37,810 bases of DNA, from UHGV virus genome UHGV-0122784; one strand, 5' to 3'. A program made the position numbers and the translations under genes. Positions 50 through 13,555 of this stretch are shown piece by piece. Origin of the DNA: a virus. The notes beneath the pieces are model-generated. The model made no database searches. It was not told the origin of the DNA and was given only the letters and a program-made list of their open reading frames with translations. The first letter of the stretch is position 1. Each line of letters opens with the position of its first letter.

Positions 50-1063
50 TCACCTCTCCTCAACCAGCGCCACCATCACATCACGCGACCAGGAAACCAT
101 CACCTGTTGTCCGGGCGTGAGCGTGGCAGGCAGTTCTTCGCCTGTCATATTGGCCTGACTCACCAGCAGTTTTTCACCGCCGCTCAGTGTCAGTTCAAAA
201 CGAGTTGCCGCGCCCTGATACTGCACCGCCTGGATCGTGCCATTAGCCTGCATTTCGCCAGGGGTGTTGAGGCGGATATGTTCCGGTCGTAGTGCGAAGC
301 TTCCCGTCATGCCACAAAGTTTCTCTGCCATCAGTCCATCAAAAACATTCGATGTCCCAACGAATCCCGCAACAAACGGCGTGCGCGGGCGCATATAGAG
401 ATCACGCGGGGAATCGACCTGTTCAATGCGTCCATTATTGAAAACCGCCACCCGATCGGACATCGATAACGCTTCGCCCTGATCGTGGGTAACGAAGATA
501 AAAGTGATACCGAGAGACTGTTGCAGCTTTTTCAGCTCAAGCTGCATTTGCTCTCGCAATTTGAGATCCAGCGCGCCGAGCGGTTCATCCAGCAACAACA
601 CACGCGGTTCGTTCACCAGTGCTCTGGCGATGGCAACCCGCTGGCGCTGACCACCAGAAAGTTGTGACGGTTTACGTTGCTGTACAAACCCCAACGCCAC
701 TTTCTCAAGCGCCTCTTGCGCCATTGCATGCCGCTGCTTTTTATTCACGCCTTTGACCATCAGCCCGTAGGCTACGTTGTCAAGAATCGACATATGCGGA
801 AATAGCGCGTAGTCCTGGAAGACAGTATTCACGTCCCGCTCCCACGGTGGCAGATTGCTGGCGGGCGTACCAAAAATAGAGATAGCCCCGCCGGAAAGCT
901 GTTCGAATCCAGCAATCAGGCGCAGGCAAGTGGTTTTGCCGGAGCCGGACGGCCCCAGCATAGAGAAGAACTCACCATCTTTTATCGCAATACTGACGCC
1001 ATCTACTGCGCGCACGTCACCGTACAACCGTGAGACGTTGTCAAACTCCACTGCGTACGTCAT
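50..1063 (-). CDS. ydcT: ABC transporter ATP-binding protein, PotA/PotG family (polyamine-type importer ATPase)
   Basis: 337-aa ORF with Walker A GPSGSGKTT, ABC signature LSGGQRQRV, Walker B LLLDEP and a C-terminal TOBE-like domain; the sequence matches my recollection of E. coli YdcT. Confidence 0.85.
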   Translation of the reverse strand: MTYAVEFDNVSRLYGDVRAVDGVSIAIKDGEFFSMLGPSGSGKTTCLRLIAGFEQLSGGAISIFGTPASNLPPWERDVNTVFQDYALFPHMSILDNVAYGLMVKGVNKKQRHAMAQEALEKVALGFVQQRKPSQLSGGQRQRVAIARALVNEPRVLLLDEPLGALDLKLREQMQLELKKLQQSLGITFIFVTHDQGEALSMSDRVAVFNNGRIEQVDSPRDLYMRPRTPFVAGFVGTSNVFDGLMAEKLCGMTGSFALRPEHIRLNTPGEMQANGTIQAVQYQGAATRFELTLSGGEKLLVSQANMTGEELPATLTPGQQVMVSWSRDVMVALVEER

Positions 1064-8914: not shown

Positions 8915-9205
8915 ATGAATAATGAAACTAAATTTACGCCTAAAGACCTGGATGAAGAACTGGTGAAAGCTAAGATGCTTGAGCGTATGCGCGATGTTAT
9001 TGAGACTGCAATCAGTAAAGGCTTTTCTGCGAGAGAGGCCCTTGAAATTATGACACGGGAAATTCATCTCATACGCGACGAAGTTTTGTTGCATAACAAA
9101 AAAGCCCACAACAATATTGTTTGTCGTGAGCTTGGCGTTGATGATTCAGCGGTTATTCCACAGCGTCAGTATCTGTGTGCTCTGATGAGAGGTTCCCGGC
9201 ATTAA
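8915..9205 (+). CDS. Early-region hypothetical protein (~96 aa)
   Basis: ATG 8915 with AAGGTGA SD (the ORF track starts at an upstream GTG at 8900); its 3' end overlaps the convergent minus-strand gene by ~50 bp. Confidence 0.55.
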   Translation: MNNETKFTPKDLDEELVKAKMLERMRDVIETAISKGFSAREALEIMTREIHLIRDEVLLHNKKAHNNIVCRELGVDDSAVIPQRQYLCALMRGSRH

Positions 9206-9512
9206 CAATATCCTGCCTTGAAGCCCAGAGCTTATTGAGCAGCAGATCAACATACTCATCGGCCTCAAAATCCAGTTCTTCGAACGTTTTTCGGTTCTTA
9301 TAGCTGGCCTGTGTATTTCTGATGATGTCATAAGCATCGTGCATGTTGATAACACCGTTTTCAATCAGCTTAATCATCAGATTACCGACCAGCATAAAAC
9401 CGGTTATACCAAAGAATTTATCCTGGTTATTAACAGGGGTGTCTTTCTGGTTTGTTTCGAAATCTGGGTTTTGTTCATCATCCGACACCGTATGTTGTTC
9501 TTGTTCAGCCAT
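9153..9512 (-). CDS. Acidic hypothetical protein (119 aa) encoded antisense to the early operon
   Basis: Minus-strand ORF with its own SD (AAGGAAA, 6-7 nt before the ATG at 9512-9510); fills a stretch (9206-9581) with no plus-strand ORF; locally AT-richer than flanking genes by eye. Confidence 0.6.
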   Translation of the reverse strand: MAEQEQHTVSDDEQNPDFETNQKDTPVNNQDKFFGITGFMLVGNLMIKLIENGVINMHDAYDIIRNTQASYKNRKTFEELDFEADEYVDLLLNKLWASRQDIVNAGNLSSEHTDTDAVE

Positions 9513-9581: not shown

Positions 9582-10133
9582 ATGAGTCGCACATCCCTGA
9601 TTAAATTAATCCATGTCGCCCGTCGGGAGCTACAACTCGACGACGACACTTACCGCGCTTTTCTGATGCAGAAAACGGGCAAAATCAGTTGCCGCGAGCT
9701 TACGGTTACGCAACTGGAACAGGTGCTCGATGCCATGAAAGAACGCGGCTTTAAGAAGCTGAATAAATACCCCCGTCGCCGCTTTAAGGAACATGTCACA
9801 CCCCGCGAGAAGGTGTATAAAATCTGGCAGCAGATGGCAGAAGACGGTTTTATTACCGATGGCGGTGATGTGGCGCTGGATAAATATGTTCAGCGCCTGA
9901 CCGCGAAACGCAACGGCGGACAGGGTGTTTCCACGCTGGCGTGGTGTCACGGAGAATCGTTGCAGGTTGTGCTTGAAACCCTGAAACAGTGGCACATCCG
10001 CTGTATTCGTGAAGCCTTTTCCCGCCACGGGTTTCCGTTGCCGGTCAGTCCGTCCGGGCGTGAACTGCGCGGCTATGATGCCATGACGGCGGCTTATGCC
10101 CGTGCAAGAAAAACACGGAGACTGGCACAATGA
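9582..10133 (+). CDS. gemA: GemA (early protein affecting host gene expression/supercoiling)
   Basis: GGAGGT SD + ATG at 9582; the ORF directly precedes mor with an ATGA overlap. The ORF track's upstream extension from 9339 is hydrophobic junk. Confidence 0.8.
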   Translation: MSRTSLIKLIHVARRELQLDDDTYRAFLMQKTGKISCRELTVTQLEQVLDAMKERGFKKLNKYPRRRFKEHVTPREKVYKIWQQMAEDGFITDGGDVALDKYVQRLTAKRNGGQGVSTLAWCHGESLQVVLETLKQWHIRCIREAFSRHGFPLPVSPSGRELRGYDAMTAAYARARKTRRLAQ

Positions 10134-10519
10134 CGCAGGATTTGTTTGGTGACTTTCAGGATGACAGTATCCTGGCTCATCTTGACAATGAATCCGGGGA
10201 TACGTCACGATTTCCGGCACTGCTGGCGGAACTGAACGATGTGCTGCGTCAGGAACTGTCCCGGCTGGGCGTTGAACCGGCGCACTCTCTGGAGATTGTT
10301 GTGGCTATCTGTAAGCATCTGGGCGGCGGTCAGGTCTATATTCCTCGTGGGCAGGTGCTGGATTCACTGGTTCGGGATTTACGAATCTGGAATGATTTTA
10401 ACGGGCGCAATGTTCACGAACTGGCAATTCGTTATGGTGTGACGTTTAACACTGTCTATAAAGCCATCCGACGAATGCGGCGTATAAAATATCGTCAGTA
10501 TCAACCCCCTCTGTTTTAA
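10130..10519 (+). CDS. mor: Middle operon regulator Mor (activator of Pm)
   Basis: 129 aa, last gene before the early terminator; paralogous to C (shared YIP.G, FNGRN, C-terminal HTH). Confidence 0.9.
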   Translation: MTQDLFGDFQDDSILAHLDNESGDTSRFPALLAELNDVLRQELSRLGVEPAHSLEIVVAICKHLGGGQVYIPRGQVLDSLVRDLRIWNDFNGRNVHELAIRYGVTFNTVYKAIRRMRRIKYRQYQPPLF

Positions 10520-10524
10520 ACAGT

Positions 10525-10549
10525 AAAGCCGGTTAATCCGGCTTTTTTT
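10525..10549 (+). terminator. Rho-independent terminator ending the early transcript (Mu t9.2 equivalent)
   Basis: AAAGCCGG-ttaat-CCGGCTTT hairpin followed by a T-run, directly after the mor stop; about 9.2 kb from the Mu left end. Confidence 0.8.
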
Positions 10550-10601
10550 ACGCCCTCAATATTCTGTTGTGACGATAAAACGTTCATGACAGGAGGGCAA
10601 C
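10550..10601 (+). promoter_or_regulatory. Probable middle promoter Pm (Mor-dependent)
   Basis: Located between the early terminator and the first middle-operon ORF; exact Mor site and -10 element not identified by me. Confidence 0.4.
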
Positions 10602-11162
10602 ATGCCTGAGTTTTCCCCTGCATTCCTTCATTCGCTGAATTTCGTTATACGCCCTGATGTTGAAGGTGGCTATGTTAATGATCCTGCCGACCGTGGCGGC
10701 GAAACGAAATACGGTATTTCTGACCGTCGCGACGGTGTTATTGATGGCAAAACCGATGTTAACGGTGACGGAAAACCTGATACCCGCATTAAGGATTTAA
10801 CCCGCGAGCAGGCGGCGCAGATCTACTGGCGTGATTACTGGCTGGCGGCAAAGTGTAACGAATGGCCTGATGGCGTTTCCTTATTCGTTTTTGATGCTGC
10901 CGTTCAGCACGGTGTTAAACGCGCGATTCAGATCCTCCAGGCGGCAGCAGGTGTTGATGATGATGGCATCGTCGGTAAAAACACACGCGCAGCCGTTCTG
11001 CGTGCCGATACTGACTGGCTGCTGTTGCAGTGCTTCCTGCGTCGTTCCCGCTATTACGCAGGGATTATCAAATCCAGTACCTCGCAGGGGAAATATCTGA
11101 ATGGCTGGTTTAACCGTCTGGATCTGCTCGCCAGCGCCTGTCGGGAGGTTCTGCATGGGTAA
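10602..11162 (+). CDS. GH108-like muramidase with C-terminal peptidoglycan-binding domain (predicted)
   Basis: N-terminal motif VEGGYVNDPADRGGETKYGIS is typical of the glycoside hydrolase 108 family; AGGAGGG SD; first ORF of the middle operon. Confidence 0.6.
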   Translation: MPEFSPAFLHSLNFVIRPDVEGGYVNDPADRGGETKYGISDRRDGVIDGKTDVNGDGKPDTRIKDLTREQAAQIYWRDYWLAAKCNEWPDGVSLFVFDAAVQHGVKRAIQILQAAAGVDDDGIVGKNTRAAVLRADTDWLLLQCFLRRSRYYAGIIKSSTSQGKYLNGWFNRLDLLASACREVLHG

Positions 11163-11385
11163 AGGGTGGGATGCGTCCTTTCAGTTCGGCAGGCGTGAAC
11201 GTTTACGACAGGAGGTATTACATCGGGAGGCCGGAGGCCCGCCACCAAAGCCAATGGATTACACAGGGCACGATGGCACCCACGGAAGTTATTACATGAA
11301 AGGCTGGCAGTCCGTTGATATGCCAGAAATTATCCACCATTGCCGGCGCTACAGAGAAAAATACCATGTACAGAAAATTCAGTGA
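11155..11385 (+). CDS. Middle-operon hypothetical protein (~76 aa)
   Basis: ATG 11155 with GGGAGG SD, overlapping the preceding stop (CTGCATGGGTAA). Confidence 0.5.
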   Translation: MGKGWDASFQFGRRERLRQEVLHREAGGPPPKPMDYTGHDGTHGSYYMKGWQSVDMPEIIHHCRRYREKYHVQKIQ

Positions 11386-11497
11386 TGAATGTTTCGGGCC
11401 GTCCACGCTGATTAGTGCGATAAAAGTGATTGCCCTTGTGGTTCTGATAACCATCAGTGCCGTGGTGTATCTTTCTGTCTGTTAACCGGGGGAAAAT

Positions 11498-11920
11498 ATG
11501 CAGCATGATTTATTTGAACACGATCCGGCAATTCGCCAGTTAATCGGACATATTGATAACATTCCGGCCCCGGAACTGGAATCACGCTGGCCCCGTTCGG
11601 TGGTTGATCTGATTGATGTTCTGGAAAACGAACTGAAACGCCAGAACGTCAGCAATCCCCGTGAGCTTGCCCGTAAACAGGCCGTTGCCCTGTCCTGTTT
11701 TCTGGGCGGGCGGCAGTTTTACATCCCCTGCGGCGATACGATCCTGACCGCGTTACGCGACGATTTGCTTTACTGCCAGTTCAATGGTCGTAACATGGAA
11801 GAACTGCGTCGCCAGTATCGCCTGTCCCAGCCGCAGATCTACCAGATTATTGCCCGCCAGAGAAAGCTGCATACACGACGTCATCAGCCTGATCTGTTCT
11901 CACCTGAAAGCCAGAAATAA
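11498..11920 (+). CDS. C: Late transcription activator C
   Basis: 140 aa; recognised as Mu C; paralogue of Mor. Confidence 0.92.
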   Translation: MQHDLFEHDPAIRQLIGHIDNIPAPELESRWPRSVVDLIDVLENELKRQNVSNPRELARKQAVALSCFLGGRQFYIPCGDTILTALRDDLLYCQFNGRNMEELRRQYRLSQPQIYQIIARQRKLHTRRHQPDLFSPESQK

Positions 11921-11943: not shown

Positions 11944-12014
11944 TGTCACCATAATCCCGCACCTGCCATCTGATTTTTTAGACTGCCATCAGAGCATTTT
12001 TTCAGGGAAGCATG

Positions 12015-12530
12015 ATGGCGGGGATACCAAAAAAACTGAAAGCCGCACTGCTGGCGGCAACGATTGCCGGTGGCGGTGTGGGTGGTTATCAGGAAATGAC
12101 CCGTCAGTCTCTGATCCATCTGGAAAATATCGCTTATATGCCTTACCGCGATATTGCCGGTGTGCTTACGGTCTGTGTGGGACATACCGGGCCGGATATC
12201 GAAATGCGCCGTTACAGCCATGCGGAGTGTATGGCTCTTCTCGACAGTGATTTAAAACCGGTTTATGCGGCAATCGATCGTCTTGTCAGGGTGCCGCTGA
12301 CGCCATATCAGAAAACGGCGCTGGCAACGTTTATTTTCAACACCGGTGTTACCGCATTCAGTAAATCAACGCTGCTGAAAAAACTCAATGCCGGTGATTA
12401 CGCCGGAGCGCGTGACCAGATGGCCCGCTGGGTGTTTGCCGCAGGCCATAAATGGAAAGGACTGATGAACCGTCGCGAAGTGGAAATGGCTATCTGGAAT
12501 ATCAGGGGGGCGGATGACCTTCGCCAGTAA
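12015..12530 (+). CDS. lys: SAR endolysin Lys (lysozyme-type muramidase with N-terminal signal-anchor-release domain)
   Basis: N-terminus MAGIPKKLKAALLAATIAGGGVGGY (Lys-Lys at positions 6-7, then a weakly hydrophobic Gly/Ala-rich TMD); start taken as the second ATG. Confidence 0.9.
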   Translation: MAGIPKKLKAALLAATIAGGGVGGYQEMTRQSLIHLENIAYMPYRDIAGVLTVCVGHTGPDIEMRRYSHAECMALLDSDLKPVYAAIDRLVRVPLTPYQKTALATFIFNTGVTAFSKSTLLKKLNAGDYAGARDQMARWVFAAGHKWKGLMNRREVEMAIWNIRGADDLRQ

Positions 12531-12900
12531 AAGTTTACTTCTGGCAGCCGTGTTTGCCGCCGTTCTGTCCGGGGTGTTGTGGCACAGGCTGGACAGCACC
12601 CGCCACGATAACCAGACGCTGCGCCGTAAATTACAGACGGAGCAACAGGCCCGCCACACTGCTGAATGGTTGTTACACAGTCAGGAACAGACGATGCAGG
12701 TATTTTCCGCTATCCGTGCCGCAAATCGTGCCGCACGGCTGGCAGATGAGACAGAACATCATGATGCAAAAGAAAAAATTACAACCGCCATTACCGGTGA
12801 CAATTGCAGCACTCGTCCTGTGCCTGCCGTTGCTGCTGACAGGTTGCGGGAACTCGAAAAACGCACCCGTGCCATCGGTGGTGATCCTGCCCGAAACTGA
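12514..12900 (+). CDS. Inner-membrane spanin subunit (i-spanin, Rz-like)
   Basis: N-terminal TMD (SLLLAAVFAAVLSGVLW) followed by a charged coiled-coil-like periplasmic domain; directly after lys. Confidence 0.8.
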   Translation: MTFASKSLLLAAVFAAVLSGVLWHRLDSTRHDNQTLRRKLQTEQQARHTAEWLLHSQEQTMQVFSAIRAANRAARLADETEHHDAKEKITTAITGDNCSTRPVPAVAADRLRELEKRTRAIGGDPARN

Positions 12901-13102
12901 TGCAGAACTGACGGAAGCAACGCCCGTTCCGCCCATGCCACAGCCCCTGACGTGGGGAGCATCCCTGCTCTGGAATGCTGACCTGCTGATGGCGCTCGGG
13001 CAGTGCAACCGCGACAAGGCATCAGTCCGGGAACAGGAGACCCGGAGGAAAGAAATTTATGAACGAAGACCAGAACCGGGCGGTGGCGCTGCTGCTCGCT
13101 GA
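12761..13102 (+). CDS. Outer-membrane lipoprotein spanin subunit (o-spanin, Rz1-like), overlapping the i-spanin gene in the +1 frame
   Basis: Internal ATG-ATG start giving MMQKKKLQPPLPVTIAALVLCLPLLLTGC: lipoprotein signal with LLTGC lipobox, followed by a Pro-rich mature region. Confidence 0.7.
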   Translation: MMQKKKLQPPLPVTIAALVLCLPLLLTGCGNSKNAPVPSVVILPETDAELTEATPVPPMPQPLTWGASLLWNADLLMALGQCNRDKASVREQETRRKEIYERRPEPGGGAAAR

Positions 13103-13253
13103 ACTCTGGCAGGGGAATACCCGTGATATTCCCCGTCCGGCGGCGTATGACCCGCCTGTATTGTGCGCCGGTTGCGGTCGTGAGCTGCGGCCTGATGTGC
13201 TGAGACAGCAGCCGATGGCGAACTACTGCCACTGGTGCCGTGGAGCAGAATAA
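13059..13253 (+). CDS. Small hypothetical protein with CxxC...CxxC motif (64 aa)
   Basis: GGAGGAAAG SD; zinc-finger-like CAGC / CHWC pair; stop overlaps the next start (TAATG). Confidence 0.6.
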   Translation: MNEDQNRAVALLLAELWQGNTRDIPRPAAYDPPVLCAGCGRELRPDVLRQQPMANYCHWCRGAE

Positions 13254-13555
13254 TGGATTCAGTTTTAGCGTTATGGCCTTACCTGTTGTACCTGTTGCCT
13301 GTCGCCGCCGGTGGGGCCGTCTGGGCGATGCGTCGTAGTTTTGCCAGCACCGAGCGTGTGGAGCGTCTTGAAAACCGGATGACCGAAATGGAAACCCGCT
13401 ACGCCAGCATCCCTGGCACAGAAGATGTACACGAAATGCGCCTGCGAATTGCAGAGCTGTCCGGCGATATCCGGGTGCTGTCCCAGCGGGTGCAGTCATT
13501 TTCCCATCAACTGGAGCTGCTGCTTGAAAATGCAGTAAACCGGAGTAATTCATGA
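13253..13555 (+). CDS. Membrane-tethered releasin-like protein (Mu gp25 equivalent)
   Basis: 100 aa; N-terminal TMD (VLALWPYLLYLLPVAAGGAVWA) followed by a charged cytoplasmic domain; positioned last in the lysis cluster. Confidence 0.65.
   Translation: MDSVLALWPYLLYLLPVAAGGAVWAMRRSFASTERVERLENRMTEMETRYASIPGTEDVHEMRLRIAELSGDIRVLSQRVQSFSHQLELLLENAVNRSNS

Follow-up and report, generated by a model that had tools for sequence, protein, structure and literature searches.

The mor–gp18 interval of a Mu-type prophage

The window analysed here, the whole 37,810-nt stretch of the virus genome UHGV-0122784, holds a Mu-type prophage whose left end (Mu position 1) lies at window position 1316, after 1.3 kb of host DNA. 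Between mor, the gene of the middle-operon activator, and the homologue of Mu gene 18 sits an open reading frame (ORF) of 186 amino acids (aa) that runs from ATG to TAA and already carries the PGAP name 'glycoside hydrolase family 108 protein' (Table 1). Judged from its sequence, this ORF, here called GH108, is an intact, full-length and signal-less N-acetylmuramidase with predicted activity, made up of a glycoside hydrolase family 108 domain followed by a PG_binding_3 domain. It is an endolysin of a type already known in Mu-like phages, in an uncommon hybrid arrangement.

Domains and fold of the GH108 protein

The Pfam search that the first-pass annotation had called for recovered both of the domains that it had proposed. 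Glyco_hydro_108 (PF05838) covers aa 20–104 (E 9.5e-25, 87.4 bits against a cutoff of 21.2) and PG_binding_3 (PF09374) covers aa 107–173 (E 5.1e-14, 52.6 bits against a cutoff of 24.6). The protein also matches PHROG 315, 'endolysin' (E 1e-51). The motif EGGYVNDPADRGGETKYGIS is present and holds the catalytic triad E21/D30/T35, which aligns with the T4-lysozyme-like triad E17/D26/T31 of SagA (PMC8334348) and with that of Sen1395 (TtsA), in which E14 and T28 are catalytic (PMC6996933). Triad and loop residues are unchanged across 40 homologues. The closest NCBIfam model, NF040573 ('holin-associated N-acetylmuramidase'), was rejected as the family of GH108, its 71 bits against 240 falling far under the cutoff.

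Among proteins of known structure, GH108 is matched in sequence by NMB1012 (E 5e-21), SagA (7DNP, E 1e-17), PG_0293 and Sen1395/TtsA, the last of these weakly (E 7e-4). An AlphaFold2 model of GH108 (predicted local distance difference test 82.8, predicted template modelling score 0.83) gave template modelling scores of 0.73/0.78 against SagA in Foldseek, and its significant fold matches in the PDB are confined to 7DNP, 2IKB/2IS5, 2NR7, 6V3Z and 6V40. The model has the two-domain, all-alpha fold of SagA (7DNP), NMB1012 (2IKB/2IS5) and TtsA/Sen1395 (6V40/6V3Z) and, similar to these proteins, carries its Glu/Asp/Thr triad on a flexible loop; TtsA resembles it further in having no signal peptide. 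SagA and TtsA, however, are bacterial secretion-system helpers under bacterial regulation, SagA with a C-terminal membrane anchor, whereas GH108 is phage-encoded, predicted to be controlled by Mor, and distinguished from SagA and NMB1012 by a 14-aa Asp/Gly-rich insertion.

This insertion lies within aa 41–60 (window 10722–10781) and contains DVNGDGKPD, its residues being D41, R43, D44, G45, D48, G49, D52, G55, D56, P59 and D60. Key residues of the loop are constant in 40 enterobacterial homologues, and the insertion is absent from the Shewanella and Vibrio GH108 proteins as well. Where the GH108 loop lies, PG_0293 (2NR7) carries the canonical DKDGDGDID. By its sequence, the GH108 loop resembles a Ca2+ loop of the dockerin/EF-hand type and may bind metal.

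No hydrophobic segment was found in GH108, the maximum Kyte–Doolittle value over 19 aa being 0.93, which bears out the earlier impression that a signal sequence was not evident. The N terminus (MPEFSPAFLHSLNFVIRPDVEGG) is non-hydrophobic, unlike that of gp22 from the same window, which has a signal-anchor-release (SAR) domain. Barring export by some other means, GH108 would therefore be soluble and cytoplasmic. In being soluble and free of a secretion signal, it has this property of a canonical endolysin.

Promoter Pm and the middle operon

The GH108 start codon lies 82 nt past the mor stop codon, and the interval between them contains a Mor-binding element, AGTAAAGCCGGTTAAT, that is identical to the one in Mu. 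The Mor site of Mu consists of 5-bp repeats with a 6-bp GC-rich spacer and is centred at −43.5 (PMC4390567), a distance that would put the start of transcription near window position 10573. The entire palindrome had also been considered as the Mor site and was replaced by AGTAAAGCCGGTTAAT in keeping with the published repeat and spacer layout. Overlapping this element is the hairpin with U-run of the early-transcript terminator, so that GH108 does stand right after the early terminator, as had been noted in the first-pass annotation; Mu record AF083977 annotates a terminator at the equivalent element. A consensus terminator scan overlooked this terminator because its stem takes up part of the U-run, and the hairpin was shown by RNA folding.

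Compared with Mu and SfMu, the window sequence is conserved until about the predicted +1 and then shows a clean 558-nt difference, which is the GH108 gene including its own AGGAGG; homology picks up again at the gp18 ATG. MAFFT aligned 13 nt of the Mu Pm leader to GH108 codons 26–29, a candidate deletion scar that is too short to set against chance and was not used. At its other end GH108 overlaps the gp18 start codon (cATGggTAA). From this layout GH108 is translationally coupled to gp18, and its Shine–Dalgarno sequence is strong.

The consensus scan found no convincing + strand terminator in 10602–11498. Because the Mor element, the hairpin and the −10 hexamer are conserved with Mu and no convincing terminator precedes C, the sequence supports a position of GH108 at the head of the middle operon, where it would be the first cistron of a Mor-dependent Pm transcript, ahead of gp18, gp20 and C. 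The earlier placement of the gene at the operon head is thus upheld for the predicted transcript, and its described separation from the SAR endolysin, spanins and releasin by C is seen directly in the gene order. With Pm dependent on Mor, GH108 should be silent in lysogens.

Neighbouring genes

The middle operon and lysis system are like those of Mu, with the same Mor site in Pm and with gp18, gp20, C, gp22, the spanins and gp25 83–99% identical. Mu differs in that it has no GH108, its Pm leader being joined straight to gp18. For its part, the window lacks gp19, as does SfMu, and its Mor and gp18 genes are deeply diverged from Mu at synonymous sites. No homologue of the three-transmembrane (3TM) holin-like protein, TraR or gp19 was found anywhere in the window. 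Searches of gp18 and gp20 against a local copy of Pfam and against NCBIfam gave no match; the newer PF26867 merely names gp18.

Elsewhere in the window, the host DNA (1–1315) contains a minus-strand ORF (50..1063) of 337 aa. Another minus-strand ORF, of 119 aa (9153–9512), lies between the semi-essential early genes and gemA, and gene calls in identical assemblies (L098) include it. At the matching place SfMu and vB_YpM_5 have an 88-aa minus-strand gene and SE11 has a DUF2513 protein. This ORF may be a moron, that is, an independently expressed accessory gene.

Table 1. Features of the window from mor to the end of the lysis genes
Feature	Coordinates	Strand	Evidence and remarks
mor, middle-operon activator	10130..10519	+	Pfam Mor E 3.9e-33; 87% aa identity to Mu Mor
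Mor-binding element of Pm, 16 bp	10522..10537	+	Identical to Mu; alignment to Mu 9163-9233
Early-transcript terminator, hairpin + U-run	10525..10549	+	Overlaps Mor site; dG -12.2 kcal/mol, z -3.0 (RNA fold)
Pm -10 hexamer, TATTCT	10560..10565	+	Mu: TATCCT, 1 nt apart; alignment with Mu and SfMu; putative function, as in Mu
Shine–Dalgarno sequence of GH108, AGGAGG	10591..10596	+	5 nt 5′ of ATG
GH108 + PG_binding_3 N-acetylmuramidase (predicted)	10602..11162	+	ATG, 186 aa, TAA; Pfam, PDB, AlphaFold2/Foldseek
gp18 homologue, 76 aa	11155..11385	+	83% identity to Mu gp18; PHROG 2121; PF26867 Phage_Mu_gp18
gp20 homologue, 39 aa, one transmembrane segment	11366..11485	+	PHROG 19823 E 8e-30; topology per Mu annotation
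C, late-gene activator, final middle-operon gene	11498..11920	+	Pfam Mor family E 9e-34; 99% identity to Mu C
gp22 SAR endolysin (T4-type lysozyme), first late lysis gene	12012..12530	+	Phage_lysozyme E 1e-37; 99% to Mu gp22
Spanin gp23	12514..12900	+	97% to Mu Rz; coordinates transferred from Mu
Embedded spanin gp23.1	~12761..13102	+	Coordinates transferred from Mu
gp25 releasin (DUF2730)	13253..13555	+	96% to Mu gp25; PF10805 on identical locus L098

Three classes of Mu-like loci

A survey anchored on gp18 took in 88 loci, 8 from species-representative genomes and 80 from IMG/VR, which were sorted by tblastn against reference proteins; phage records were added. In type A, with about 60 loci, the order after GemA is Mor, GH108, gp18, (gp19-like), a ~200-aa protein, TraR, (DUF2730), gp26 and gp27. 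Its hosts are many Enterobacterales (Klebsiella, Citrobacter, Serratia and E. coli) together with Shewanella, Vibrio and Enterovibrio. The Mu type (13 loci) has the order Mor, gp18, (gp19), gp20, C, T4-type lysozyme, Rz, gp24 and DUF2730. The hybrid order (10 loci) is Mor, GH108, gp18, (gp19), gp20, C, T4-type lysozyme and onwards, and it is also found beyond those 10 loci in the window, in the phages vB_YpM_5 and vB_YpM_6, in E. coli elppa5 and in SE11. By tblastn, five loci of the type-A class, four from Shewanella/Vibrio and one enterobacterial, gave no GH108 match.

Across the classified loci, the set of gp20, C, lysozyme, Rz and gp24 was never seen together with the set of holin-like protein and TraR, and type-A loci have neither C nor a T4-type lysozyme. 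This mutual exclusion leaves GH108 as the sole muralytic gene of type A, accompanied by a plausible holin; GH108 is the predicted endolysin of these loci. The plausible holin is the ~200-aa protein, which has C-terminal transmembrane segments. Its matches to the Pfam model GTA_holin_3TM are sub-threshold (5 of 7 members, best E 7.6e-4), and we call it holin-like only.

In enterobacterial type-A loci, as in the window, the hairpin GCCGGT[T/A]AATCCGGC and a T-run lie ~75–85 nt 5′ of GH108. Type-A loci keep the hairpin alone, the Mor half-sites not being conserved. From this hairpin to the gp18 ATG the distance is 627 nt in all hybrids and 657–675 nt in type A; in the GH108-less loci it is 69 nt, with a single identical junction (15/15).

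Our search of the literature on GH108 in Mu-type phages found one paper, on the Mannheimia Mu-like phage vB_MhM_3927AP2, in which the GH108 gene after mor is named 'lys' (PMC4553209). In that phage, as in vB_SspM_MuM16-2 (p20), Vibrio 1.028.O (gene 20), Kp4866-3 and E. coli PSS-15, GH108 has two domains and lies directly 3′ of mor, as in the window, and these Mu-like GH108 endolysins are 42–76% identical to the window protein. The next gene after GH108 is a gp18 homologue in the enterobacterial examples, in Shewanella MuM16-2, in Vibrio 1.028.O and in Enterovibrio, again as in the window; the Shewanella/Vibrio gp18 homologues are 36–38% identical with their motifs conserved. The enterobacterial examples also share the upstream terminator hairpin. 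Unlike the window, these Mu-like phages have GH108 as their sole muralytic gene, a 3TM-holin-like partner and no C; the window has no holin-like gene and, downstream of C, carries a complete system of SAR endolysin, releasin and spanins.

A muramidase encoded apart from the lysis genes had been described in the first-pass annotation as unexplained by the standard lysis pathway. That view does not survive the survey, in which the same gene after mor is the only muralytic gene of ~60 related loci and has a holin-like partner. Given these type-A parallels, we attribute the presence of GH108 in the window to ancestry and mosaicism and not to a new function in the replication phase.

Several features of the surveyed loci are recorded in their own right. 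The PHROG 2121 profile (284 positions) covers both gp18 (3–75) and the ~200-aa holin-like protein (88–272), which suggests that the two are fused or tightly coupled in some phages and hints that they are linked in function. Between mor and the hairpin that precedes GH108, Kp4866-3 encodes an extra 110-aa membrane protein of PHROG 36430 (L006 3553–3885), of which no counterpart was found in the window or in Mu. In the alignment of the Shewanella/Vibrio GH108 proteins (L004 3950–4534 and L005 3956–4516), Asp replaces the catalytic Glu of EGGY (DG...GYVNDP); these proteins appear to be the only endolysin candidates of their phages.

A divergent module in a Mu-like backbone

Synonymous divergence (dS) from Mu is saturated at gp18 and reaches 0.83 at mor, against 0.19 at gemA, 0.08 at C, 0.04 at lys and 0 at gp20. 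Mor is 87% identical to its Mu counterpart in amino acids, yet with this dS its gene belongs to a divergent Mor–GH108–gp18 module. The module has recombined into an otherwise Mu-like backbone, leaving the window prophage with two muramidases. So sharp a mosaic implies recombination breakpoints near the gemA/mor junction and inside the gp18/gp20 overlap. The SE11-type prophage has the same module (Mor 100%, GH108 98%), with a C (75%) and a lysis region beside it that differ greatly.

Among 5.8 billion proteins, the nearest cluster to the hybrid GH108 is just 73–74% identical. The divergence of GH108 from type A (72–73% aa identity) resembles that of its flanks, Mor (60–62%) and gp18 (69%), and its GC content is in line with that of the adjoining genes. 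All three findings speak against GH108 having been gained recently by the hybrids.

The order Mor, hairpin, GH108, gp18 is both the widespread and the outgroup state, from which Mu, D108 and SfMu depart. The simplest account would start from a Mor-driven holin–endolysin cassette as the ancestral state. The Mu lineage would have swapped the holin-like/TraR segment for gp20, C, the SAR endolysin and the spanins, and a single loss of GH108 would have followed, leaving the one identical junction of Mu, D108 and SfMu. This history suggests that the small middle genes of Mu descended from an older lysis cassette. One can go further and regard Mu genes 18–20 as a fossil Mor-driven lysis cassette and the hybrids as living intermediates with holin-free GH108 lysis by way of the DUF2730 releasin and/or gp20, an extension that we consider speculative and rather unlikely.

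Frequency and selection

Within the phage collection, the same gene in the same place occurs only in the Yersinia phages vB_YpM_5 and vB_YpM_6 (99.5% aa identity), where it is annotated as hypothetical. Both phages form plaques, and the paper that describes them does not mention the gene (PMC10434027). The next-best matches, in Klebsiella phage Kp4866-3 (72%), Shewanella phage MuM16-2 (43%) and a set of Vibrio phages (42%), all come from Mu-like phages, where the gene lies ~8–10 kb in from the record's left end and, where annotation exists, just past mor. The exact window protein is indexed in 696 assembly blocks, with the same neighbours at every place sampled. Among 5426 complete E. coli genomes, C with a SAR lysozyme of Mu type is present in 41, the type-A version of GH108 in ~50 and window-clade GH108 in 8, of which 5 have a Mu-type C–lys region and 3 are of SE11 type. 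Window-clade GH108 was seen in hybrid contexts only, and the window is a member of a minority lineage that retains the gene.

The frame of GH108 is intact in all of the hybrid loci examined (18/18, the window and phage records included). Between the window and SE11 the gene has 24 synonymous and 3 non-synonymous differences, a ratio of non-synonymous to synonymous divergence (dN/dS) of 0.03, and between the window and elppa5 it has 14 and 1. Across hybrid contexts at a dS of 0.1–0.2, dN/dS is 0.02–0.03. GH108 is maintained in the hybrids under strong purifying selection.

Proposed role in lysis

Mu has no holin and lyses its host by means of the gp22 SAR endolysin, the gp25 releasin and the spanins; its genes 18–20 are dispensable, and gp19 and gp20 are not holin-like (PMC9239132). 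We propose that GH108 is probably a cytoplasmic auxiliary endolysin, made from the middle transcript and acting once the membrane opens at lysis. Mor would activate Pm, and GH108, gp18, gp20 and C would be expressed from one middle transcript. GH108 would then fold and build up in the cytoplasm, as soluble endolysins do. Such early synthesis should be harmless because an enzyme with neither an export signal nor an encoded holin partner cannot get to the murein. When the inner membrane is breached in the lysis started by gp22, gp25 and the spanins, GH108 would reach the murein and act as a second, auxiliary endolysin. We infer that it is not a replication-phase wall remodeller. A canonical endolysin has a holin in its own lysis cassette; the type-A relatives encode a candidate, and in the window none was found.

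Several points weigh against this proposal. The activity of GH108 and its contribution to lysis are predictions, and its transcription from Pm is deduced from identity with the Mu sequence. Little benefit is expected of an enzyme that is set free no earlier than the burst, so a role as late helper explains the strong purifying selection poorly. As to origin, loss in Mu rather than gain in the hybrids was decided by parsimony and flank divergence, not from a rooted phylogeny, and the class frequencies are biased because the survey was gp18-anchored and similarity-ranked.

The strength of selection is the reason to keep holin-independent export as a substantial rival. GH108 would then be a co-primary endolysin, in some relatives the primary one, that reaches the periplasm before the burst through the DUF2730 protein gp25, gp20, or gp19 where present. 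Many Mu-like phages have DUF2730 proteins together with soluble endolysins, and these DUF2730 proteins may do more than release SAR endolysins (PMC9239132). They are also found in type-A loci, and TtsA, likewise a signal-less GH108 enzyme, gets to the cell wall without an identified holin (PMC13284979). In the SE11-type hybrid, moreover, GH108 is intact, whereas the T4-type lysozyme has Ala for the catalytic Glu, is missing its C-terminal third and has no spanin genes close by; this prophage type, found in 3 complete E. coli genomes, may have GH108 as its sole functional muramidase. Yet that prophage may be defective, gp19 is not in the window, and Mu gp19, gp20 and gp25, singly or combined, gave no holin-like lethality upon triggering with 2,4-dinitrophenol (PMC9239132). 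We consider this route unlikely, though worth taking seriously. The same selection data disfavour the view of GH108 as a functionless passenger, an orphan endolysin that was recombined in with Mor and gp18 and has no access to the wall and no effect on fitness. Such a view draws on the clear mosaicism of the module, the absence of the cognate holin-like gene from the window, the success of Mu, D108 and SfMu without GH108 and the dispensability of Mu genes 18–20 (PMC9239132). It is at odds with the intact frames and low dN/dS just described, with the invariance of the triad and of the clade-specific loop residues, and with the strong Shine–Dalgarno sequence and coupling to gp18, and we hold it to be improbable.

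Roles outside lysis had been offered in the first-pass annotation, namely cell-wall remodelling during replication, superinfection-related functions or a place in the virion, to which an entry lysin and help with secretion like that of a type 10 secretion system can be added. Predicted middle-phase expression would fit them, as would the service of the bacterial GH108 enzymes TtsA and SagA to secretion systems (PMC6996933, PMC8334348) and the occurrence of GH108 domains within phage proteins of 550–900 aa that are possibly structural. GH108 itself, however, has no signal peptide, transmembrane segment or structural-domain fusion; the proteins most closely related to it all stand alone and occupy the endolysin position; and under a Mor-dependent Pm it would be silent in lysogens. 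PADLOC gave no defence-system match for GH108, gp18 or gp20, which speaks against a superinfection role, and for wall remodelling or a virion role we found no evidence. A TtsA-like type 10 secretion muramidase was considered and rejected, since GH108 lies between mor and C in a prophage with no cargo gene adjacent and matches TtsA only at E 7e-4. Taken together, such roles are very improbable, and the auxiliary endolysin is the reading that we prefer.

As a side observation on SE11, its lysozyme downstream of C (L008 5373–5801) is only 142 aa long and has a lipobox-like LAAC in the N-terminal hydrophobic segment. No spanin or gp24 genes were detected in the SE11 Mu-like prophage.

Relation to other GH108 endolysins and implications

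N4 gp61 is the founding GH108 muramidase. It belongs to the same CAZy family as the window protein, as do the GH108–PG3 endolysins of Acinetobacter phages, including ElyA1 (PMC7188820), and there the enzymes are soluble and holin-dependent. The Acinetobacter phage endolysins compared, a set apart from ElyA1, are 39–42% identical to GH108. Unlike GH108, they and gp61 are encoded in canonical late lysis cassettes, each as the only endolysin of its phage. In practical terms, the window adds one more candidate to the GH108 endolysins for Gram-negative bacteria, with a conserved Asp/Gly-rich loop that possibly binds metal.

Among well-studied tailed phages, Mu alone is reported to be holin-less, and the GH108–gp18 pair behind mor is widespread. 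Together with this wide spread, replacement of the holin-like gene by gp20, C, the SAR endolysin and the spanins would be a concrete evolutionary route to Mu lysis and to its three-tier transcription cascade. As natural test systems for a soluble endolysin in a holin-less phage, and for DUF2730 proteins serving soluble endolysins, one can turn to the hybrid prophages and to the phages vB_YpM_5 and vB_YpM_6. If GH108 were indeed unleashed by DUF2730 or gp20, releasins would act on soluble as well as SAR endolysins.

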